Of a stretch of DNA of 7,760 nt, positions 1 to 7,760 are shown in pieces. Made by a program: the position numbers and the translations under genes. The notes under the pieces were generated by a model. The model worked only from the letters and a program-made list of their open reading frames with translations, did no database searches and was not told where the DNA came from. This DNA is from Candidatus Woesearchaeota archaeon (lineage in GTDB: Archaea > Nanobdellota > Nanobdellia > Nanobdellales > CAZNIQ01): positions 1 through 7,760 of the forward strand of contig CAZNIQ010000001.1 in assembly GCA_964573185.1 (NCBI GenBank), in the 5' to 3' direction. Within the stretch, counting starts at the first letter, position 1. Every line of letters begins with the position of its first letter.

Positions 1-689
1 ACAGCTTCATCAATAGATATTCCATCTGCGATAATCCTGCCACCTTTTATTACAATGATTCTTTCAGCATAAGATGCTACTTTAGGATCATGTGTAACTA
101 CAATTATGGTCTTTCCGTCTCTATGCAACTTCTTAAATAAATTCATTACTATTTTTGCAGATTCTACATCTAAAGCTCCGGTAGGCTCATCTGCTAAAAT
201 TAAATCAGGATCATTTGCTAGGGCTCTTGCAATAGCTACTCTCTGTTGCTGTCCTCCTGAAAGTTCAGAAGGTTTGTGATACAATCTATCTCCAAGACCT
301 ACCCATTCTAATAATTCTTTTGCTCTCTTAATTCTTTTCTTTTTTGGTATTCCTGCAAATATCATTGGTAATTCTACATTCTCTATAGCAGTCAAAGTCG
401 GTATTAAATAAAACATCTGGAAAACAAATCCAATTCTTTTATTTCTTATTTTTGCCAACTGATTATCATTTAATTTAGAGATATCTTTTCCAAAGATATA
501 AACTTTTCCCTTAGTAGGTTTGTCTAGACATCCTATTAAGTGTAATAAAGTTGATTTCCCAGATCCGGAAGGACCCATGATAGAAACGAACTCCCCCTCC
601 TTTATTCTAAGAGAAACATCTTTCAGAGCAATTACCTTCGTTTTTCCTAACTTATACACTTTCCAAACGTTCTCCAGCCTAACAATCAT
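1..689 (-). CDS. ABC transporter ATP-binding protein, LolD/MacB-type (COG1136-like). The 3' end runs off the left window edge.
   Basis: My reverse-complement translation from the ATG at 689..687 reads MIVRLENVWKVYKLGKTKVIALKDVSLRIKEGEFVSIMGPSGSGKSTLLHLIG...FVFQMFYLIPTLTAIENVELP...LSGGQQQRVAIARALANDPDLILADEPTGALD...IIVVTHD. Walker A is GPSGSGKST (549..575) and the ABC signature is LSGGQQQR (240..263). A Q-loop, Walker B (LILADEPT) and H-loop (VTHD) are also present. The frame stays open to position 1, which explains its absence from the ORF track. Confidence 0.93.
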   Translation of the reverse strand, partial: MIVRLENVWKVYKLGKTKVIALKDVSLRIKEGEFVSIMGPSGSGKSTLLHLIGCLDKPTKGKVYIFGKDISKLNDNQLAKIRNKRIGFVFQMFYLIPTLTAIENVELPMIFAGIPKKKRIKRAKELLEWVGLGDRLYHKPSELSGGQQQRVAIARALANDPDLILADEPTGALDVESAKIVMNLFKKLHRDGKTIIVVTHDPKVASYAERIIVIKGGRIIADGISIDEA

Positions 690-712
690 TAAAAAAGTAT
701 ATTACAGAAAAA

Positions 713-720
713 CTTATAAA
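713..720. promoter_or_regulatory. Candidate shared, bidirectional archaeal TATA box in the 52-bp divergent intergenic region.
   Basis: The site reads cTTATAAA on the plus strand and TTTATAAG on the minus strand. Its centre is about 25.5 nt from the plus-strand ATG at 742 and about 27.5 nt from the minus-strand ATG at 689. An A-rich, BRE-like run (agaaaaa, 707..712) lies on the plus-strand upstream side. This spacing would give leaderless transcripts in both directions. The call rests on the motif and its spacing alone. Confidence 0.4.
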
Positions 721-722
721 TG

Positions 723-737
723 GTAAGAAATTCTTAC
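723..737. promoter_or_regulatory. 15-bp perfect palindrome, a candidate operator between the TATA box and the AbrB-like start codon.
   Basis: GTAAGAA-a-TTCTTAC is perfectly self-complementary around a central A at 730. The half-site GTAAGAA recurs at 748..754, inside an imperfect 17-bp palindrome CTAGTAAGAATTTCTAG (745..761) that spans codons 2-7 of the AbrB-like gene. The palindromes are seen directly; their operator function is inferred. Confidence 0.35.
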
Positions 738-741
738 AATC

Positions 742-1020
742 ATGCTAGTAAGAATTTCTAGAGTATCTTCTAAAGGACAAATAGTCATACCTCAAGTAAT
801 AAGAGCAAAATTAAAGATAAAGGAGGGAGATTTATTTCTTTTCATACCATTAAGTCATGATTTAATATTGTTGAAGAGAATAAGTTTTGATACCGAAGAT
901 TATAAGAAATTTACTGAAGAGTTAGTGGAGGAGCTTAAGAAATTGAGAGTACAGATAAAAAAGGAGATAATAGACAAGGCCTTAAAAAACCTAATAAAAA
1001 AGTATCAAGAAAATGAATAG
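742..1020 (+). CDS. AbrB/SpoVT (MazE-like swapped-hairpin) family DNA-binding protein with a charged helical C-terminal tail.
   Basis: The N-terminus MLVRISRVSSKGQIVIPQVIRAKLKIKEGDLFLF matches the SpoVT-AbrB pattern (x-V-x-xx-GQIxIPxxIRxxLxIxxGD). The C-terminal half is a K/E-rich predicted helix. The start is ATG, and the last 8 nt overlap the next gene (1013..1020). Confidence 0.8.
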   Translation: MLVRISRVSSKGQIVIPQVIRAKLKIKEGDLFLFIPLSHDLILLKRISFDTEDYKKFTEELVEELKKLRVQIKKEIIDKALKNLIKKYQENE

Positions 1021-2383
1021 AATTTCTTTAATATTTTCCTTATTTTTAATTCCAGTAGCATTTTCATTGTATTTTGATTTAACAAAAAGCTATACTGTTC
1101 CGAAGATCATAGAACCAAATAAGGACTTTACTTACTTTTTATATTTGGTAAATAACGAGGGCACTCCTGTATATGATGTTAAAGTAAAATTTTATCCCCC
1201 AGAATGTCTAAAGCTTTCCAAAGATGAATACGATATAGATACATTATATAACATATACGTAATTCCTTTAAAAGTAGAAAACAATTGTGGAGAAGGTACT
1301 TATTGGATTGATGCAAAAATAGAATATTACAACAATAAAGGATATCAAGAGATAAAAGAAACGATACCAATAATAGTTACAAGCGTACCTAATATTCTTA
1401 TCAAAAAAGTAGAAAGTAAAAATGCGTATCCCGGTAAAATAGCAAATATAACAGTTTATTTAGATAAAAGGAATGTTTATGATTTGAGAGTTTATATAAA
1501 TAGCACTTGTGTATATCCTAAAACCTCTTATATTTATGTAGGAGATTCTAACAGCTTCTGGTTTGAGGTACATGTACCGTATAGGACCTACGGAATTTGC
1601 CCTATTGTTTTAACATTTGTCTATCAAGATTGGCAAGAAAATCAATATAAAGACGTAAAAGCTATTAGTATAAAGATAAATAAATTGCTGGGAGATGTAG
1701 AATTATATAATTATACTGTAAAAAATGATAATTTGATAATTAAAATAAAAAATAATTGGAATACTAAGATTTATAATGTTCATTTGGTTTTATCCTCTAG
1801 AGATATTTTATTCAAGAAAAGTGAGGCATACATAAAGGAGCTACAGCCTTATCAAATATATGAATTGAGATTTCCATTTATTAAAGATAAAGAAGGTAGA
1901 TTTCTCGTAACAATAAATATGTTTTATACAGATGAAAATGGAAACCTATACAATAAAACATTAGTAATACCGGTTGAAATCTTTAGTAAACCCGATGTAT
2001 TGGTAAAACTTCAGAAGGTAGAAGGAAATGACATTAGATTAATAGTGATAAATTCTGCAAACAGTGATGTAAAATCTTTATACTTAGAACTTTTACCCGG
2101 AGATTATAAAATAATTGGGAGTAGAATTATTTATATAGGGGATCTAGAGGCTAATGATTATGATACTGCAGAATTTAAGATTATACCATTAAATAAAACG
2201 GTTATCTTAAAGTTAAAAGTGTATTTTAAGGATGCTTTAGGCAAAGTACATGTTCTATCTAAAAATATAACAGTTACCTTTCCAGAAGAAAAGAAAAATA
2301 CCTCAATATATTATGCGCTATTGGTAATAGTCCCAGTGATAATATACTTTGTATTTAAGAAGAGAAAAAGAGAGGAAGAATGA
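1013..2383 (+). CDS. Membrane-anchored surface protein with four tandem CARDB/COG1361-like ('S-layer domain'-type) beta-sandwich repeats.
   Basis: An N-terminal signal-like segment (MNRISLIFSLFLIPVAFSL) is followed by four repeats of about 100 aa, at roughly aa 27-122, 123-222, 223-323 and 324-423. Repeat 4 is the clearest: IRLIVINSANSDVKSLYLELLPGDYKIIGSRIIYIGDLEANDYDTAEFKIIP...LKVYFKDALGKVHVLSKNITVTF. A C-terminal TM helix (IYYALLVIVPVIIYFVF) precedes a basic tail, KKRKREEE. There are seven N-x-S/T sequons. The gene overlaps its upstream neighbour by 8 nt and its downstream neighbour by 4 nt. Confidence 0.8.
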   Translation: MNRISLIFSLFLIPVAFSLYFDLTKSYTVPKIIEPNKDFTYFLYLVNNEGTPVYDVKVKFYPPECLKLSKDEYDIDTLYNIYVIPLKVENNCGEGTYWIDAKIEYYNNKGYQEIKETIPIIVTSVPNILIKKVESKNAYPGKIANITVYLDKRNVYDLRVYINSTCVYPKTSYIYVGDSNSFWFEVHVPYRTYGICPIVLTFVYQDWQENQYKDVKAISIKINKLLGDVELYNYTVKNDNLIIKIKNNWNTKIYNVHLVLSSRDILFKKSEAYIKELQPYQIYELRFPFIKDKEGRFLVTINMFYTDENGNLYNKTLVIPVEIFSKPDVLVKLQKVEGNDIRLIVINSANSDVKSLYLELLPGDYKIIGSRIIYIGDLEANDYDTAEFKIIPLNKTVILKLKVYFKDALGKVHVLSKNITVTFPEEKKNTSIYYALLVIVPVIIYFVFKKRKREEE

Positions 2384-3561
2384 AATTATTAGATTTTTTA
2401 TACTTAGCTTTTAGGAATTTACAAAGAAGAAAGCTTAGGTCATGGTTAACTACTTTAGGTATAATTATTGGAATTGCTACAGTCGTTTCTATCGTTTCTT
2501 TAAGTAAAGGGATGGAGAAGGCAATAGTAAGTTCTTTAGAAAAAATGGGAAAGGATAAAATAATGATATTACCTGGTCAAAAATCCTTTTCTCCGGGAAC
2601 TTTATTTGTAGGAAAACCCTTTTCAGAAGAAGATGTAAAGAAAATAGAGAGGTTGCCAGACATAGAATATGTTATTCCAATTACATTTACAACTAAGCAA
2701 ATTATTTTTAAGAATGAAATTTTTCCTACAATTATTTATGCTGTCCCTGTAGATAAGAAAATAGAGGTTTTCGGATATGAACTTTTAGATGGAAGATTTC
2801 TAAGCAAAAATGATAAAAACAAATGTAGAGTTTTATTAGGATATCAAATAGCGAAACACGTTTTTTCAAAAGAAATAGAAGTTGGAGATAAAATTATAAT
2901 TAATAATTACGAATGTAAAGTTGTTGGTATTTTGAAATCAACCGGATCTAGGTTTGATGATTATGCAATATATTTGCCATACTCCTTTGCAAAAGAACAT
3001 CTTGGGATGAAAGATATTAATCTTATACTTGTTAAAGCAGAAGATATTGAAAAAGCTAAAAAGGAATTAGAAAAATTATTAGAAAAAATTAGAGGAAAAG
3101 ATTTTTCTATATTAACTCCAGAACAGTTTATAGAGCAAGTAAAAACTATTCTAAATATTTTATCTTTCTTTGTAACAATCATTGCTAGTATATCTTTGTT
3201 AGTATCAGCTATTGGTATTATGAATACTATGTACATGGCTGTAGTTGAAAGAATAAGAGAAATAGGTATTCTAAAAGCTATAGGTGCAAGGAAAAGGGAC
3301 ATTATGTTAATATTTCTTTTAGAATCAGGTTTGATGGGGCTTATAGGTGGTATTATTGGTACTTTTGTAGGAATTCTTTTATCGTATGTTGCTGAATATA
3401 TAGCTCAAAATATAGGATTAATTATGTTCAAAGCTTACATAGATCCGTTATTTATAATAGGAGTATTAATATTTGCTTTCTTCGTAGGAGTAATTTCTGG
3501 AATTTTACCAGCAAGATCAGCAGCGAACCTAGATCCTGTAAAAGCTTTAAGATATGAATAA
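2380..3561 (+). CDS. ABC transporter permease, MacB/FtsX type (COG0577-like).
   Basis: The N-terminus FRNLQRRKLRSWLTTLGIIIGIATVVSIV provides TM1. A soluble extracytoplasmic domain of about 210 aa follows, then a C-terminal FtsX-type three-helix bundle with the conserved ERIREIGILKAIGARKRDIMLIFLLES motif and the ending LPARSAANLDPVKALRYE. The start overlaps the previous stop as ATGA. GAGG lies about 7 nt upstream. Confidence 0.92.
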   Translation: MKLLDFLYLAFRNLQRRKLRSWLTTLGIIIGIATVVSIVSLSKGMEKAIVSSLEKMGKDKIMILPGQKSFSPGTLFVGKPFSEEDVKKIERLPDIEYVIPITFTTKQIIFKNEIFPTIIYAVPVDKKIEVFGYELLDGRFLSKNDKNKCRVLLGYQIAKHVFSKEIEVGDKIIINNYECKVVGILKSTGSRFDDYAIYLPYSFAKEHLGMKDINLILVKAEDIEKAKKELEKLLEKIRGKDFSILTPEQFIEQVKTILNILSFFVTIIASISLLVSAIGIMNTMYMAVVERIREIGILKAIGARKRDIMLIFLLESGLMGLIGGIIGTFVGILLSYVAEYIAQNIGLIMFKAYIDPLFIIGVLIFAFFVGVISGILPARSAANLDPVKALRYE

Positions 3562-3566
3562 TAATT

Positions 3567-3914
3567 ATGAAGCTTGTTGTAGTCGTTAGAACGGATTTAA
3601 ATATGGGGAAGGGAAAAATTTGTGCTCAGGTTGCACATGCGGCAGTAGAATGTGTTTTAGAAACTTTAAAAAGAAATCCAGAAAAAGTTGAAAAATGGAG
3701 AAATGAAGGAGCTAAAAAAATTGTTCTAAAAGTTAAATCTGAAAAAGAATTAATTAAAATATATGAGAGAGCAAAGAAAGAGGGTTTAGTAACTGTTTTG
3801 ATTAAAGACGCTGGCTTAACACAGATTCCCCCCGGAACTATCACATGTGTAGGAATTGGGCCTGATGAGGATGAAAAAATTGATAAAATTACAGGTCATT
3901 TGAAGTTGTTATGA
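3567..3914 (+). CDS. pth2: Peptidyl-tRNA hydrolase, archaeal/eukaryotic Pth2 type.
   Basis: The protein is 115 aa with hallmark Pth2 segments: KLVVVVRTDLNMGKGKICAQVAHAAV and DAGLTQIPPGTITCVGIGP. It starts 5 nt after the permease stop, and its own stop overlaps the next ATG (ATGA). Confidence 0.93.
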   Translation: MKLVVVVRTDLNMGKGKICAQVAHAAVECVLETLKRNPEKVEKWRNEGAKKIVLKVKSEKELIKIYERAKKEGLVTVLIKDAGLTQIPPGTITCVGIGPDEDEKIDKITGHLKLL

Positions 3915-4291
3915 GTATAGAAGATATTATTACTCAGTTAGAAAAATACAATTTAAAAGGAAAGAAAATTATCATGAGAATTGTATATGAAGACGAAAGG
4001 TTAACAATACCACCATTAGAAAGCGTTACTATCAGAACGAACAACAATACTTTCTTTATTACTAAATCAGAAATCATTTGTGATGAAGGAAATTATGAAG
4101 AACAAGGTGTTTATATTTTATACTCTAAAGGGCATGTTAGGATCATTCATAGAGAGATAGAAGCTAGTCCTTATTTGGGAAGACCGGTTGCAGTAATAAT
4201 TATGAAACTTTCTGAAGTAACTATTCACTATAGCAGAAAATGTTATGAGTTGTTAGGAAATCACTGTGCTTACTTGGACTGTCGTATCTAA
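3911..4291 (+). CDS. Hypothetical protein of 126 aa; I recognise no family.
   Basis: The frame is intact, with an ATGA overlap to pth2 that suggests translational coupling, and composition like the neighbouring genes. A Cys-containing C-terminus reads CYELLGNHCAYLDCRI. No diagnostic motif was recognised. The coding call rests on ORF length, coupling and the absence of a competing frame. Confidence 0.55.
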   Translation: MSIEDIITQLEKYNLKGKKIIMRIVYEDERLTIPPLESVTIRTNNNTFFITKSEIICDEGNYEEQGVYILYSKGHVRIIHREIEASPYLGRPVAVIIMKLSEVTIHYSRKCYELLGNHCAYLDCRI

Positions 4292-4581
4292 ATTATTTTT
4301 ATTGGCCTTCCCTCAATTATTGCTTGAATAATTTTTTTTCTAGCAGAATTTACCAACCTTGAAACTTTTGACCTTGATACTTTCATTTTTTCTGCAGCTT
4401 GTTCTTGTGTTAAACCTTCATAATCCACTAATCTTAAAGCTTCTAATTCCTCTTTAGTTAAAACAATTGGTTCTGCATTTTTTATGGGGACTGGTATTAA
4501 TTGTTGAACATCATATTCAAAAGAGATAAAAACGGGTAGAGGTGGTCTCCCCCTATGTCTGTGCCTCCATCTCCATCCCAT
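4288..4581 (-). CDS. DUF134/UPF0251-family (COG1342-like) putative DNA-binding protein with a sigma-70 region-4-like HTH.
   Basis: The segment IVLTKEELEALRLVDYEGLTQEQAAEKMKVSRSKVSRLVNSARKKIIQAIIEG matches the DUF134 core. I place the start at the ATG at 4581..4579 (MGWRWRHRHRGRPP...), not at the track's TTG at 4596. That ATG overlaps the upstream stop as TAATG. Confidence 0.85.
   Translation of the reverse strand: MGWRWRHRHRGRPPLPVFISFEYDVQQLIPVPIKNAEPIVLTKEELEALRLVDYEGLTQEQAAEKMKVSRSKVSRLVNSARKKIIQAIIEGRPIKII
4293..4303 (+). terminator. Possible archaeal oligo-T termination signal for the plus-strand unit that ends at 4291.
   Basis: The sequence ttatttttatt has a T5 run at 4296..4300, immediately after the TAA at 4289..4291. 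It lies inside the 3' end of the convergent minus-strand gene. The call is based on the motif only. Confidence 0.25.
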
Positions 4582-4952
4582 TATTTCCAACCCCAACCTC
4601 TTCTGCCCGCTTGAATACCTAAAGGTAACTCTCCTTTTTCAGCTTTTACTGCAGCTTCTTTTACTGTAATTGGCGGTGAAGAGAATAATTTAACTCCCGA
4701 TTGTGATAATATAGCATAAGCATTTCCACCAAACTGACCGGCAACAACAGCATCTACATTTTTAGATAATATGAATTGTGCTAGTGCAACACCCTTACCT
4801 TTGCCGGTTATTAATCCCGGATTTTGATATACTTCATAATTTTTGATTTCTCCATTTTCTACTTCAACTATTATTATGTATGGAGCTTGTCCGAAGCTAG
4901 GACTAACTAGTGAATTTAAATCAGGTCCCAAAGATGCTATTGCCACCCTCAT
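4581..4952 (-). CDS. NifX/NifB-C-terminal-like protein (dinitrogenase FeMo-cofactor-binding family, COG1433-like).
   Basis: MRVAIASLGPDLNSLVSPSFGQAPYIIIVEVENGEIKNYEVYQNP...GVALAQFILSKNVDAVVAGQFGGNAYAILSQSGVKLF follows the family pattern (MKIAVAS...VSPHFGRAPYF..V....GEI..., then ..VIAG.IG..A...L...GI.V.). I chose the ATG at 4952 rather than the track's start at 5015. The family normally begins directly at this beta-strand, and the longer version would consume the promoter and palindrome region. The protein carries an unusual C-terminal tail, GRRGWGWK. Confidence 0.88.
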   Translation of the reverse strand: MRVAIASLGPDLNSLVSPSFGQAPYIIIVEVENGEIKNYEVYQNPGLITGKGKGVALAQFILSKNVDAVVAGQFGGNAYAILSQSGVKLFSSPPITVKEAAVKAEKGELPLGIQAGRRGWGWK

Positions 4953-4976
4953 AAGTTTAACATTTTTAATAAGCTT

Positions 4977-5004
4977 TATAAAATTTTCTATAGAAAATTT
5001 TATA
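4977..5004. promoter_or_regulatory. Perfect 28-bp palindrome containing two divergent TATA boxes: a candidate bidirectional promoter and operator.
   Basis: TATAAAATTTTCTA|TAGAAAATTTTATA is exactly self-complementary; I checked it base by base, and pairing fails at 4976/5005. The plus-strand TATA (TTTATATA, 4999..5006) is centred about 25.5 nt upstream of the ATG at 5028. The minus-strand TATA (TTTATAAA, complement of 4975..4982) is centred about 26.5 nt upstream of the ATG at 4952. This predicts two leaderless divergent transcripts. Confidence 0.5.
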
Positions 5005-5027
5005 TATTTTTGCACAAATGTTCAGAT

Positions 5028-5659: not shown

Positions 5660-6048
5660 TAAAAACTATACACGATTATTTGAGGATATTTCCATTTATA
5701 GTACTAGCATATATTTTAATTTATCTACTAAGAAAATTTAAAATAAAACAATATGCGAAGAAAGTCAAAAACAAAATACTATTGGCTTACGTTTTAGGGA
5801 TACTTTCTCATGGTCCTATTTACGCATGGTACCCCTTACTGAAGGAATTGGAATTCTCCGAAGAGGAACTTCTAGCTTTCTTTTACTTAAGAGGAATAAA
5901 GCTACCGCAAATACCATTACAAATAGCTTTACTAGGATTAAAGTTAACATTATTATTAAATTCGTATCTTCTTATAGTACCTTTTCTATTTCTTATTAAA
6001 GATTTAAAAAGTATTAAATTAAAGAAAGAAAGTGCTCTTCGGAAATAG
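5641..6048 (+). CDS. Small integral membrane protein, about 4 TM; half-size permease-like, partner 2.
   Basis: The 135-aa protein has hydrophobic segments at about aa 16-30, 46-63, 90-106 and 108-119. Its motif string HGP...YPLL...IP...GLK falls at nearly the same offsets as in the preceding protein. It starts with ATG and overlaps its neighbours by 19 nt and 17 nt. Confidence 0.65.
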   Translation: MLADILIKTIHDYLRIFPFIVLAYILIYLLRKFKIKQYAKKVKNKILLAYVLGILSHGPIYAWYPLLKELEFSEEELLAFFYLRGIKLPQIPLQIALLGLKLTLLLNSYLLIVPFLFLIKDLKSIKLKKESALRK

Positions 6049-6688
6049 AGTTCTATATGCTGGGTGTATGTACAAATTTGCATTGAAGGACAAATTTGAA
6101 GGATACAGAAAGTTACTACAGAGATATATGGATATAATCATCTTGCCAGAAGAATTTTGTTGCGGGAGACCCGTTATGAATTTAGGGTATTTGGATGATT
6201 ATAAAGAGCTCGTTAAAAGGAATTTTGAGCTATTTAAAAAGTACAATGTTAAAGAAATAATTTGTCCTTGTCCAGCTTGCTATAAAACCTTTAAAGAAGA
6301 ATATCCAAAAATACTCGGTAATAAATGGAAAATAAAAGTAAAGCATGTGTCCGAAGTTTTATTAGAATTGGCTAAAAAAGGAAAGCTAAAGAAAAAAGAC
6401 GTAAAGAAAGTTATATATCATAAAAATTGCCATTTAAGGGATACAAATTTTGTAGAAGAATTATTGAAGGAATTAAAAATTGAATATACTATCTTAAATG
6501 GTTGTTGTGGTGCTGGTGGAGGATTTAGAGCAAACTTTCCTGAAATAGCTAGAGAAATAGCTTGGAAATTAACAGAAGGCTTAAGAGGCACCATTCTTAC
6601 TGCTTGTCCAATGTGTTATTATCATTTAAGAGAAAGTACTTGCAGATGTAGGCTGGAAATTTTAGATTTAATTGATATAGTCCTATGA
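6032..6688 (+). CDS. (Fe-S)-binding protein with two CCG cysteine-rich domains; LutA / HdrB / GlpC-like (COG0247-like).
   Basis: There are two copies of the CCG-domain cysteine pattern. The first is C12...C43-C44-G...C78/C80..C83 (FCCGRP...CPCPAC). The second is C133...C158-C159-G...C192..C195 (GCCGAGGG...CPMC). The N-terminus RVLYAGC resembles the usual KVALFxxC start of LutA-type proteins. That supports the GTG start at 6032, since no in-frame ATG precedes this motif. Confidence 0.88.
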   Translation: MLFGNRVLYAGCMYKFALKDKFEGYRKLLQRYMDIIILPEEFCCGRPVMNLGYLDDYKELVKRNFELFKKYNVKEIICPCPACYKTFKEEYPKILGNKWKIKVKHVSEVLLELAKKGKLKKKDVKKVIYHKNCHLRDTNFVEELLKELKIEYTILNGCCGAGGGFRANFPEIAREIAWKLTEGLRGTILTACPMCYYHLRESTCRCRLEILDLIDIVL

Positions 6689-7760
6689 TGAAAGTTCGTT
6701 CTATAAGAGAAAAAGTTCTTGAAAACTTATTTTACTATTTAGATAAAGCTAAAGAAAATTTAGAGAAAAATGGATGTTACGTTTATGAAGCTAAAGATTC
6801 TAAAGAAGCTTTAAAAATAATTAAAGAATTAGTAGGAGAAGAAAAGTTAGTTTTAAAATCCAAAACAAATGTTGGGAAAGAGATACATTTAAAAGAAGAG
6901 TTAAGAAAGAGCGGGATTGAAATAATTGAAACGGATTGTGGTGACTTTATTATAGATTGCTTAGGACTTGAAGGAAATCATCCAGTAATTCCTTGCTATG
7001 GATTAACTTTAGAAAAAATTGCTGAAGGATTGTCTAAAAAATTGGGAGTAAAAGTAGAGCCGAATCCAGAGTCTATAGTAAATGCTGTTAGAAATTATGT
7101 AAAAAGCAAGTTAAATGAAGCAAAAATTGGAATTACTGGAGCCAATGCCATTTCTTCTGAAGGATCTATATTCCTTGTTGAAAATGAAGGAAACATATCT
7201 TTTGTTTCTAGATTGGAAAAGCATATTGTTTTGGCTGGTATTGAAAAAGTAAATCCTACAGATGAAGATTGCATAAAAATATGTAAAGCGCAAGCAGAGG
7301 CATTAGGAATTCCGTGGACTTATATAAACGTTATTTCAGGACCAAGTAAAACAGGAGATATTCCGAATACTATAGTTAAAGGAATGTATGGAGCAAAAGA
7401 AGTACATGTAATTTTCTTAGATAATGGAAGAAGAAAATTATATGAGTCTGAATTTAGAGAAATATTGATGTGTCTTGGATGCGGGGCTTGTCTATTAGAA
7501 TGTCCTGTATTTAATATTCTATTAGGAGAATTGGGATTTGAACATAAAGGAGTAAGAGGAATAATACTACAATTCTTTCAAAAAGAATTAAGTGATATTT
7601 TCAAAAAAGCATATTATTGCATATGCTGTGGGAGGTGTAAGGATAGATGTCCCGTAGAACTAGATATCCCAGAATTAGTAAGAAAAATGAGATATAAATT
7701 AATAAAAGCTGGTTTAGAAACAGAAGTGAACAAAAAAATGATAGAGAAAATAAGAAAATA
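6685..7760 (+). CDS. LutB-like iron-sulfur protein (LUD/DUF162 domain plus a 2x[4Fe-4S] ferredoxin domain, COG1139-like). The 3' end runs off the right window edge.
   Basis: My translation from the ATG at 6685 is open to the window end, about 358 codons. It begins MMKVRSIREKVLENL and contains GITGANAISSEGSIFLVENEGN, the LUD-domain hallmark. Two CxxCxxCxxxCP motifs follow: CLGCGACLLECP (7471..7506) and CICCGRCKDRCP (7618..7653). The start overlaps the previous stop (ATGA). It is absent from the ORF track because no stop lies within the window. Confidence 0.9.
   Translation, partial: MMKVRSIREKVLENLFYYLDKAKENLEKNGCYVYEAKDSKEALKIIKELVGEEKLVLKSKTNVGKEIHLKEELRKSGIEIIETDCGDFIIDCLGLEGNHPVIPCYGLTLEKIAEGLSKKLGVKVEPNPESIVNAVRNYVKSKLNEAKIGITGANAISSEGSIFLVENEGNISFVSRLEKHIVLAGIEKVNPTDEDCIKICKAQAEALGIPWTYINVISGPSKTGDIPNTIVKGMYGAKEVHVIFLDNGRRKLYESEFREILMCLGCGACLLECPVFNILLGELGFEHKGVRGIILQFFQKELSDIFKKAYYCICCGRCKDRCPVELDIPELVRKMRYKLIKAGLETEVNKKMIEKIRK

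Follow-up and report, generated by a model that had tools for sequence, protein, structure and literature searches.

We analyzed a 7,760-nucleotide stretch of DNA (the window), which forms positions 1 to 7,760 of contig CAZNIQ010000001.1 from a Candidatus Woesearchaeota archaeon (assembly GCA_964573185.1). Its left-hand part encodes an archaeal type VII (MacB-superfamily) ATP-binding cassette (ABC) system that comprises an MJ0796-like ATPase, a permease with four transmembrane helices (TM1 to TM4), and a bitopic, membrane-anchored 456-amino-acid (aa) protein built from four immunoglobulin-like (Ig) domains, hereafter the Ig-chain protein. An open reading frame (ORF) map and direct translation both reproduced exactly the coordinates and reading frames given in an earlier note on this DNA, in which a minus-strand ATPase gene diverges from a plus-strand series consisting of an AbrB-like gene, the Ig-chain gene, and the permease gene (Table 1), and the gene identities proposed there were supported by matches to Pfam, NCBIfam, and known structures. 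The two sides are separated by a 52-bp spacer; the start of the Ig-chain gene overlaps the AbrB-like gene by 8 nt, and the permease gene, with a GAGG Shine-Dalgarno-like element upstream, overlaps the Ig-chain gene by 4 nt. The 7.76-kb window contains no tRNA gene and no Rfam family.

Table 1. Features of the transporter locus and its neighbors, with positions in the window
Feature	Position	Strand	Evidence
ABC ATPase (nucleotide-binding domain), MacB/LolD type	1-689	-	ABC_tran; MJ0796, 60% identity; intact motifs
Divergent control region, 52 bp, common to the ATPase gene and the AbrB-like/Ig-chain/permease unit	690-741		sequence
Near-palindromic TATA-like box, TTATAAAT	714-721		read from sequence; kept in locus L002
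Perfect palindrome GTAAGAA-A-TTCTTAC, candidate AbrB operator	723-737		repeat search (arms 7, spacer 1)
AbrB/SpoVT-type swapped-hairpin protein, 92 aa	742-1020	+	TIGR01439; MazE_antitoxin
Third GTAAGAA half-site, in the first codons of the AbrB-like gene	748-754	+	repeat search
Ig-chain protein ("surf"), 456 aa, membrane-anchored, four beta-sandwich domains	1013-2383	+	AlphaFold2; family search
Predicted Sec signal peptide, aa 1-18 (MNR, hydrophobic core, AFS|LY)	1013-1066	+	hydrophobic stretch 1-24
Distal domains D1 (about aa 25-122), D2 (127-222), and D3 (229-323)	1085-1981	+	AlphaFold2 limits
Membrane-proximal domain D4 (aa 329-422), universal family core	1997-2278	+	AlphaFold2; family alignment
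Transmembrane anchor (aa 429-450), cytoplasmic basic tail KKRKREEE, and stop codon	2297-2383	+	hydropathy; AlphaFold2
MacB-type (type VII ABC) permease, 393 aa	2380-3561	+	Pfam; PDB; AlphaFold2/Foldseek
pth2, Pth2 peptidyl-tRNA hydrolase	3567-3914	+	PF01981, 9.4e-48
126-aa ORF	3911-4291	+	
DUF134 protein (sigma-70 region 4-like helix-turn-helix)	4288-4596	-	
NifB/NifX-type Nitro_FeMo-Co gene	4581-5015	-	
Small hydrophobic ORF, 126 aa	5279-5659	+	
Small hydrophobic ORF, 135 aa	5641-6048	+	
CCG cysteine-rich domain protein, LutA/HdrD-like	6032-6688	+	1.2e-19
LUD-domain and 4Fe-4S protein, LutB-like, running off the end	6676-7760	+	8.3e-37

Translation from the ATG at position 689 gives 229 aa of the ATPase, whose gene runs off the window edge and there lacks ~6 C-terminal residues relative to the 235-aa relative in a second locus of this kind (L002), which lies on a contig from a close relative. 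The polypeptide matches ABC_tran in Pfam (E = 5.6e-37), and its best NCBIfam models are nucleotide-binding domains (NBDs) of the MacB, LolD, DarD, and FtsE types; with the Walker A (GPSGSGKST), signature (LSGGQQQR), Walker B (LILADEPT), and H-loop (VTHD) motifs intact in translation, it is the predicted cognate MacB/LolD/FtsE-type NBD of the system. It scores below the equivalog cutoffs for MacB (NF007826; 281.7 versus 966 bits), LolD (257 versus 307.75), and FtsE (227.3 versus 264.85). Its closest solved relative is MJ0796 of Methanocaldococcus jannaschii (PDB 1f3o, 1l2t, and 3tif; 60% identity, E = 5e-79), the best-known archaeal NBD of this class, which has been a structural model for decades without a known physiological role. 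MJ0796 has been described as LolD/MacB-like (PMC8277102). We rejected MJ0796 as the ortholog of the module ATPase, as it is 57 to 60% identical to both the window ATPase and that of the corresponding module in Methanocaldococcus vulcanius; judged from these identities, the window ATPase is a paralog. The M. vulcanius module ATPase (positions 6191-6862 of locus L025) is just 57% identical to the MJ0796 protein of its sister species, so Methanocaldococcus must carry at least two paralogous MacB-type systems.

The permease has both of the domains implied by its assignment to the MacB/FtsX group, each above its gathering cutoff: MacB_PCD (E = 2.9e-36; 126.2 bits, cutoff 27) and FtsX (E = 1.9e-22; 80.0 bits, cutoff 25.5). 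Its hydropathy profile shows four hydrophobic transmembrane stretches, and an AlphaFold2 model built on 24 homologs (predicted local distance difference test score [pLDDT], 85.5) predicts, in order, an N-terminal amphipathic helix, a long TM1 stalk, a core α/β domain of ~190 aa, a TM2 stalk, a short coupling helix, TM3, and TM4 (helices 21-56, 247-290, 292-300, 305-344, and 356-382; mixed α/β domain 57-246). This predicted arrangement, with four transmembrane helices, a large extracytoplasmic domain between TM1 and TM2, stalk helices, and a coupling helix between TM2 and TM3, is that of the MacB superfamily. Foldseek matched the model to MacB (5gko; E = 6.7e-26, TMq 0.69) and to Spr0695 of Streptococcus pneumoniae (5xu1_M; template modeling [TM] score, 0.69/0.70), with LolC/E, YtrF, HrtB, and YbbP among the further top matches, and a sequence search of the PDB also matched MacB (2.1e-45). 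The superfamily domains are present and the equivalog cutoffs are missed (MacB NF007826, 189.4 versus 966 bits; lolCE, 104.5 versus 362.45; FtsX models, 38 to 46 versus 225 to 255), and the permease is therefore a MacB-superfamily member of no characterized subfamily. The presence of a single permease gene in the window suggests that the protein forms a homodimer.

The Ig-chain protein was modeled with AlphaFold2 on a 15-sequence family alignment. Its description in the earlier note as a signal peptide, four beta-sandwich repeats, and a C-terminal transmembrane anchor was borne out by this model (mean pLDDT, 86.9) and by hydropathy. Four all-beta domains (D1 to D4), with pLDDT around 90 and the predicted fold of tandem Ig-like domains, are followed by a helix at residues 431-455; the predicted TM score (0.45) is low, as expected for beads on a string. 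The signal peptide region has low pLDDT, its S18 is invariant among close relatives, and the cleavage site is placed by the -3/-1 rule. The protein is thus predicted to be exported by its own signal peptide, so that it would not need the ABC system for export, and to be held in the same membrane by its C-terminal helix. Cysteine pairs in D1 (C65/C92) and D2 (C166/C196) and seven N-x-S/T sequons fit an exposed archaeal surface protein. We tried and rejected a PGF-CTERM/archaeosortase sorting signal: no NCBIfam sorting-signal model matched (E ≤ 0.1), and the alignment columns before the transmembrane helix are variable.

The protein itself matches no Pfam or NCBIfam family (Pfam, E ≤ 0.1), and a PDB sequence search found no relative. 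An expected match to CARDB, DUF11, or NPCBM_assoc thus failed for the 456-aa protein and held for its relatives, 6 of 15 of which, among those aligned, match CARDB (best, 3.9e-12) and 4 of which match NPCBM_assoc. By this indirect homology the domains are of the CARDB type, and the 456-aa protein is too diverged to show it directly. Foldseek matches of the model were to ciliary ASH/HYDIN domains, macroglobulin domains of alpha-2-macroglobulin and complement, the S-layer protein SbsB, and adhesin repeats. Beta-sandwich repeats, a signal peptide, a C-terminal transmembrane helix, sequons, and Cys pairs are all shared with archaeal surface proteins of the CARDB (PF07705) and NPCBM_assoc (PF10633) types, a broad group named in the literature only as “putative S-layer domain” proteins. 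What sets the family of the 456-aa protein apart from that group is a sequence signature in D4 and linkage, in the sampled loci, to a MacB-type transporter.

When 1.84 billion cluster representatives were searched exhaustively with HMMER (E ≤ 1e-3), a family of 547 representatives emerged; this search was needed to see the family, as word-indexed searches gave just 4 (protein) and 6 (profile) matches. Few members are full-length relatives (P0002 at 63% identity and P0005 to P0009 at ~30%), most of the 547 match only query residues ~240-454, and the distant relatives P0003 and P0004 match only the D4 region. Among 151 representatives, D1 was covered in 22%, D2 in 16%, D3 in 58%, D4 in 98%, and the anchor in 77%, and family lengths range from 189 to 547 aa with distal domains that vary in number and sequence. 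The best 152 relatives all carry at least three K/R residues in the last 15 positions, and a C-terminal transmembrane helix is found in 140 of them and an N-terminal hydrophobic segment in 121. The D4 signature reads N347-x-G; Y374-I-G376-x-L-D/E-x-D/N-D382-x-x-T-x-x-F388; Y/F405-x-D407, with conservation of 100% at G376, 99% at N347, and 95% at D382. The conserved core of the family is therefore the membrane-proximal D4 with its anchor, and the distal domains are variable, the pattern to be anticipated for a protein that touches a conserved partner with its membrane-proximal end. The 456-aa protein has every feature by which we define the family, namely, an N-terminal signal, at least two beta-sandwich domains, the D4 signature, a C-terminal transmembrane helix, and a basic tail.

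Through the Ig-chain protein or its relatives we assembled 17 distinct loci from woesearchaeotal, undinarchaeotal, parvarchaeotal, and Archaeoglobaceae genomes and from metagenome contigs, annotated by phmmer and precomputed Pfam calls; genome and metagenome pattern scans yielded five loci each. (In our numbering the window is both L001 and L013; L002 and L003, L004 and L005, L006 and L007 [Woesearchaeota], and L009 and L014 [Undinarchaeota] are likewise one locus each; the others are L008 [Woesearchaeota], L010 [Parvarchaeota], L011 [Archaeoglobaceae], L012, which is close to L017, L015, L016, and L018 to L023.) A MacB_PCD/FtsX permease gene lies in the cluster in all 16 assessable loci and directly downstream of the Ig-chain gene in 14, the nonadjacent cases being L004, with two small ORFs in between, and L022, with two DNA-methyltransferase genes and another ORF inserted. 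An ABC ATPase gene is present in 15 of the 17 loci, and three related loci have two permease genes. The junction of the Ig-chain and permease genes is a 4-nt overlap in five loci and falls within 30 nt in nearly all, which is typical of co-translated complex subunits. The similarity ranks of Ig-chain proteins and permeases encoded on the same contigs run in parallel (P0002/P0163, P0006/P0166, and P0008/P0168).

The gene order is not fixed. We found ATPase-Ig chain-permease, the ATPase gene divergent from AbrB-Ig chain-permease, the Ig-chain gene divergent from permease-ATPase, and permease-ATPase-Ig chain-regulator. The flanks are unrelated, with pth2 downstream in the window versus an MCM-intein region in L002, where the neighbors include MCM, eIF-1A, and eIF-2beta. 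The closest named permease homologs are from Methanococcales and DPANN lineages, and both cultured Methanococcales examined through the permease have a family member beside it: Methanococcus maripaludis (L024) has the order permease-ATPase-410-aa protein-ArsR-like helix-turn-helix protein, and in M. vulcanius (L025) the gene for a 399-aa protein is divergent from permease-ATPase. Searched with the family profile, the 410-aa and 399-aa proteins give E = 5e-41 and 2e-50, respectively, and both carry the D4 signature and a basic-tailed anchor. Four gene orders around one constant trio, over a large phylogenetic distance, are strong evidence for a functional unit, and we concluded that the ATPase, the permease, and the Ig-chain protein are conserved as a unit across distant archaea. 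The statement in the earlier note that CARDB-like “S-layer domain” genes recur beside a MacB/FtsX permease and an ATPase was thus supported, both in the assessable loci and in the two Methanococcales, and the lack of enrichment next to such transporters that would have counted against it was not observed; the regulator in the operon differs between loci (AbrB, PadR, or ArsR-like). CARDB-like proteins are common in archaea, and the 456-aa gene might on that account merely happen to lie between a regulator gene and a transporter gene, but linkage in all 16 assessable loci, amid unrelated flanks and permuted order, effectively refutes a chance neighborhood.

Several of these loci have features of their own. 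In L011 (5302-7775) and L012 (4897-7366), and also in L017, the Ig-chain gene overlaps the MacB-type permease gene and there is no ATPase gene within ~5 kb on either side, so that the ATPase in these cases must be shared with another system or come from a gene elsewhere. In L004 (5592-7826) and L006 (2983-3462), additional small ORFs for cytoplasmic proteins (135, 157, 152, and 159 aa) lie between the ATPase, Ig-chain, and permease genes; they have no Pfam match and may be module-specific components or regulators. Two N6_N4 DNA-methyltransferase genes and an ORF without assignment interrupt the module of L022 (1630-8898), with a Bro-N gene downstream, a pattern that suggests insertion of a mobile element into the operon with retention of all three components. 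In L002 (13422-18021) and L018 (3663-7057) the module adjoins the same block of genes (MCM, an OB-fold tRNA_anti-codon protein, eIF-2beta, and DUF424); a housekeeping block shared by such distant relatives hints at an ancestral chromosomal position, and the downstream context of the window differs. The pairing of Ig-chain and transporter genes is presumably visible in COG/arCOG resources. A full-text literature search found no study assigning a function to it or to archaeal MacB-type systems generally.

Comparison with the L002 orthologs gave identities of 93% for the ATPase, 88% for the AbrB-like protein, 78% for the permease, and 62% for the Ig-chain protein, with dN/dS ratios of 0.065, 0.046, 0.13, and 0.19, respectively (dN for the Ig-chain gene, 0.27). 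Ratios of 0.05 to 0.19 indicate that the four genes are real and under purifying selection. Conservation along the permease is highest in TM1 and at the beginning of the core domain, and divergence is greater in core residues 81-160 and 201-240 and in TM3-TM4 (~321-360). The exposed components thus evolve fastest, which is compatible both with a partner and with a client of the transporter. As a separate observation, dS for the ATPase gene (window 1-689 versus L002 8972-9679) is 0.50, two- to threefold below that of the three adjacent genes (1.1 to 1.5); the ATPase side of the divergent pair may have recombined or been replaced, or its codons or mRNA may be under strong constraint.

The control region contains a near-palindromic TATA-like box, TTATAAAT, whose center lies ~25 nt from the start codon on the plus strand (ATG at 742) and ~28 nt from that on the minus strand (ATG at 689). 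Such spacing is typical of archaeal leaderless transcripts, and this one box may serve both directions, with putative leaderless or near-leaderless transcripts on either side. A perfect palindrome sits between the box and the start codon of the AbrB-like gene, with its arms kept in L002. GTAAGAA occurs five times in the window, where ~2 copies are expected, and three of the five fall within the 32 nt from 723 to 754; the third of these half-sites encodes a conserved V-R-I motif, so it may simply be a by-product of the coding sequence. Between the window and L002 the spacer keeps 88.5% identity, versus 70% DNA identity for the adjacent Ig-chain gene. In L008 an analogous box, TTTAAAAA, lies ~25 nt upstream of the AbrB ATG, with TTCTTAC between box and ATG. 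A scan for bacterial sigma-70 promoters and intrinsic terminators gave background-level results, which are irrelevant for an archaeon.

The N-terminal 45 residues of the AbrB-like protein show the likeness to AbrB/SpoVT transcription factors, passing the swapped-hairpin domain model (TIGR01439; 39.4 bits, cutoff 28.3, E = 3.6e-10) with weak PDB matches to SpoVT and archaeal AbrB; it differs from them in a distinctive C-terminal helical extension and in that its gene stands first in a transporter operon, with translational coupling. AbrB orthologs are kept in three modules, and the L008 ortholog aligns from end to end, C-terminal helix included, at 46% identity. Other lineages have PadR (L020) or an ArsR-like helix-turn-helix protein (M. 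maripaludis) in the same slot, so an in-operon repressor appears to be a recurrent but exchangeable feature. The AbrB-like protein is a probable repressor of its operon and would bind the GTAAGAA-A-TTCTTAC palindrome. This candidate operator lies between the common TATA box and the gene's own putative leaderless start and would overlap the transcription factor B recognition element (BRE) side of the divergent ATPase promoter, a position common to both promoters from which one repressor would control both transcription units. The alternative that the gene encodes a degenerate antitoxin of a type II toxin-antitoxin system (MazE/VapB/PrlF-like), or a cytoplasmic subunit that does not bind DNA, draws on a best Pfam match to MazE_antitoxin (PF04014; 26.1 bits, cutoff 24.7, 8.3e-06), on weak matches to PrlF and VapB models, and on gene overlaps, with the next gene in the window and with the ATPase gene in L008, that are compatible with a structural role. 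We consider it very unlikely: the protein passes the AbrB-family model, the perfect palindrome and the repeated half-sites coincide exactly with the gene's own promoter, and bona fide transcription factors fill the equivalent slot in other lineages. The toxin-antitoxin reading was rejected, as no toxin family (PIN, MazF, or YhaV) occurs among the neighbors in the window, L002, or L008.

To our knowledge, every type VII ABC transporter that has been studied depends on, or acts upon, a specific extracytoplasmic partner (MacA-TolC, LolA, or EnvC/PcsB), and archaea, although they have many of these transporters, have none of the partners. The window permease shares its fold and topology with the MacB proteins of MacAB-TolC systems from Escherichia coli, A. 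baumannii, and A. actinomycetemcomitans (PDB 5nik, 5gko, and 5lil) and is paired with the same type of NBD, and family knowledge leads one to expect a similar mechanotransmission involving an extracytoplasmic partner. In the window, however, the NBD is a separate polypeptide encoded on the opposite strand rather than a fused domain; there is neither a MacA/HlyD adaptor nor TolC, no outer membrane exists, and the partner candidate is a C-terminally anchored Ig-like chain unlike membrane fusion proteins (MFPs). As the earlier note had held, no HlyD/MFP adaptor was found, nor any outer-membrane factor, among the ORFs of the window or in the 21-kb L002 locus. The system is closest in organization to the Gram-positive systems Spr0693-0694-0695 of S. 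pneumoniae (5xu1) and YknXYZ of Bacillus subtilis (YknZ, 5f9q), with which it shares a single membrane, separate NBD and permease genes, the best whole-chain permease match (5xu1_M), and an NBD match of 1.6e-78. Those systems differ in having MFP partners (Spr0693 and YknX), whereas in the window an unrelated all-beta Ig-repeat protein fills the partner slot. With LolCDE and FtsEX-EnvC/PcsB the window system shares the permease superfamily and the use of cytoplasmic ATP hydrolysis to drive work on an extracytoplasmic protein; its scores are far under the Lol and FtsX cutoffs, there is no LolA-, EnvC-, or PcsB-like gene, and we know of no Lol lipoprotein pathway in archaea. What is new here is a type VII ABC system with a candidate partner of a previously uncharacterized, non-MFP class, the Ig-chain protein, which is probably the working partner.

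MacB-type transporters do not carry a substrate across the membrane; ATP-driven zipping of the TM1 and TM2 stalks moves the periplasmic core domain, and work outside the membrane is done through a partner such as MacA-TolC, LolA, or EnvC/PcsB. We favor, with modest confidence, the view that the transporter has in the Ig-chain protein a dedicated accessory subunit outside the cytoplasm, which acts as scaffold, conduit, or acceptor. It would be a roughly stoichiometric subunit whose D4 and anchor dock on the periplasmic core domain and transmembrane bundle of the permease and whose variable distal domains point towards the S-layer, reaching ~10 to 15 nm into the pseudo-periplasm. Driven by ATP, the permease dimer would close and open and so act on this scaffold or through it, and a substrate would be expelled or handed over from the outer face of the membrane. 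The Ig-chain protein would in this way take the role of bacterial MacA-type adaptors, LolA, or EnvC/PcsB, none of which is encoded at this locus. A bolder form of the proposal, which we regard as rather doubtful, makes the Ig-chain protein the archaeal counterpart of a periplasmic adaptor, several copies of which would ring the MacB-type dimer through D4 and the transmembrane helix while the stacked Ig domains form a conduit or strut that crosses the pseudo-periplasm to the S-layer. More speculative still is the idea that, in DPANN episymbionts, the motor mechanically actuates an Ig surface chain.

Two other relations between the Ig-chain protein and the transporter have to be weighed against that of an accessory subunit. 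The two may be co-regulated and physically independent. The transporter would then export or detoxify compounds on its own (antimicrobial peptides or lipids, for example), and the Ig-chain protein would be an envelope or adhesion protein that serves the same response by shielding against, binding, or sensing the same compound, with no stable complex between them. The generic CARDB/Ig adhesion-type folds, the varying number of distal domains, and the different stress-type regulators (AbrB, PadR, and ArsR-like) that head the operons all fit such an arrangement, and it is generally known that the bacterial MacB-family systems HrtBA and BceAB, which appear as structural neighbors of the permease, work without an adaptor. 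Nevertheless, adjacency, often with overlapping codons, has been kept across very distant archaea despite rearrangements, which is tighter than usual for co-regulation, and the conserved part of the protein is its membrane-proximal domain and not the exposed tip. We therefore regard independence as unlikely.

Less likely again, in our judgment, is that the transporter has the Ig-chain protein as its substrate, a client that the motor would extract, release, reposition, or quality-control and deliver to the S-layer or cell surface, by analogy with LolCDE, which pulls lipoproteins from the membrane. A client would show the same strict linkage as a partner; its universal anchor and adjacent domain could equally be a recognition element, and the standing of the 456-aa gene as the fastest evolving of the module is as expected for an exposed surface protein. 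Extraction, however, would mean pulling a strongly basic cytoplasmic tail through the membrane, it would be unusual for each transporter to have retained a single client for so long, and no sorting motif precedes the transmembrane helix. Translational coupling with the permease also suggests stoichiometric co-assembly over enzyme-substrate ratios.

Some of the observations weigh against the accessory-subunit reading itself, or against its regulatory part, and temper our confidence in it. Physical contact between the Ig-chain protein and the permease is inferred. Foldseek against the PDB finds just generic tandem Ig, macroglobulin, ASH, and S-layer repeats for the Ig-chain model (TM score ≤ 0.27) and no known transporter partner, and the transmembrane anchor is conserved in character and not in sequence. 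Two related Archaeoglobaceae-type loci pair the Ig-chain and permease genes with no ATPase gene within 5 kb. The loci surveyed were sampled from the best 150 of the 547 representatives, and weaker family members grade into generic CARDB proteins. The promoter, operator, and leaderless starts were read from sequence alone, and one of the three clustered half-sites lies in codons for a conserved peptide.

Downstream of the transporter genes, pth2 begins 5 nt past the permease stop codon with no terminator-like element in the gap, so that co-transcription with the transporter operon may occur. It is overlapped by 4 nt by the 126-aa ORF, which has no Pfam or NCBIfam match; neither gene accompanies the module in L002. 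The pth2 gene supports an archaeal origin of the DNA, as do MCM, eIF-1A, and eIF-2beta near the module in L002. The minus-strand DUF134 and Nitro_FeMo-Co genes, which overlap each other by 16 nt, converge on the 126-aa ORF. Farther along, two small hydrophobic ORFs without Pfam matches overlap and may be two halves of one membrane protein or permease, and the CCG and LUD genes at the end of the window form a redox pair of the lactate utilization type, which suggests a metabolically capable host.

The neighborhood itself is no surprise, as comparative-genomics resources hint at the pairing; the value of the present analysis lies in a defined architecture, a conserved core, and the clear experiments that these make possible. 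The D4 signature is a practical means of separating transporter-linked proteins from generic adhesins. If the accessory-subunit reading is true, some of the many unannotated CARDB-like “S-layer domain” proteins would acquire a function, and were the adaptor ring or conduit to prove real, archaea would have their first described envelope-spanning, ATP-driven assembly for efflux or mechanotransduction, with a fold unrelated to that of MFPs. The partner candidate is linked in every sampled locus, structurally simple, and present in the genetically tractable M. maripaludis, which makes the function of archaeal MacB-type systems, and the way in which they couple to the envelope, directly testable.

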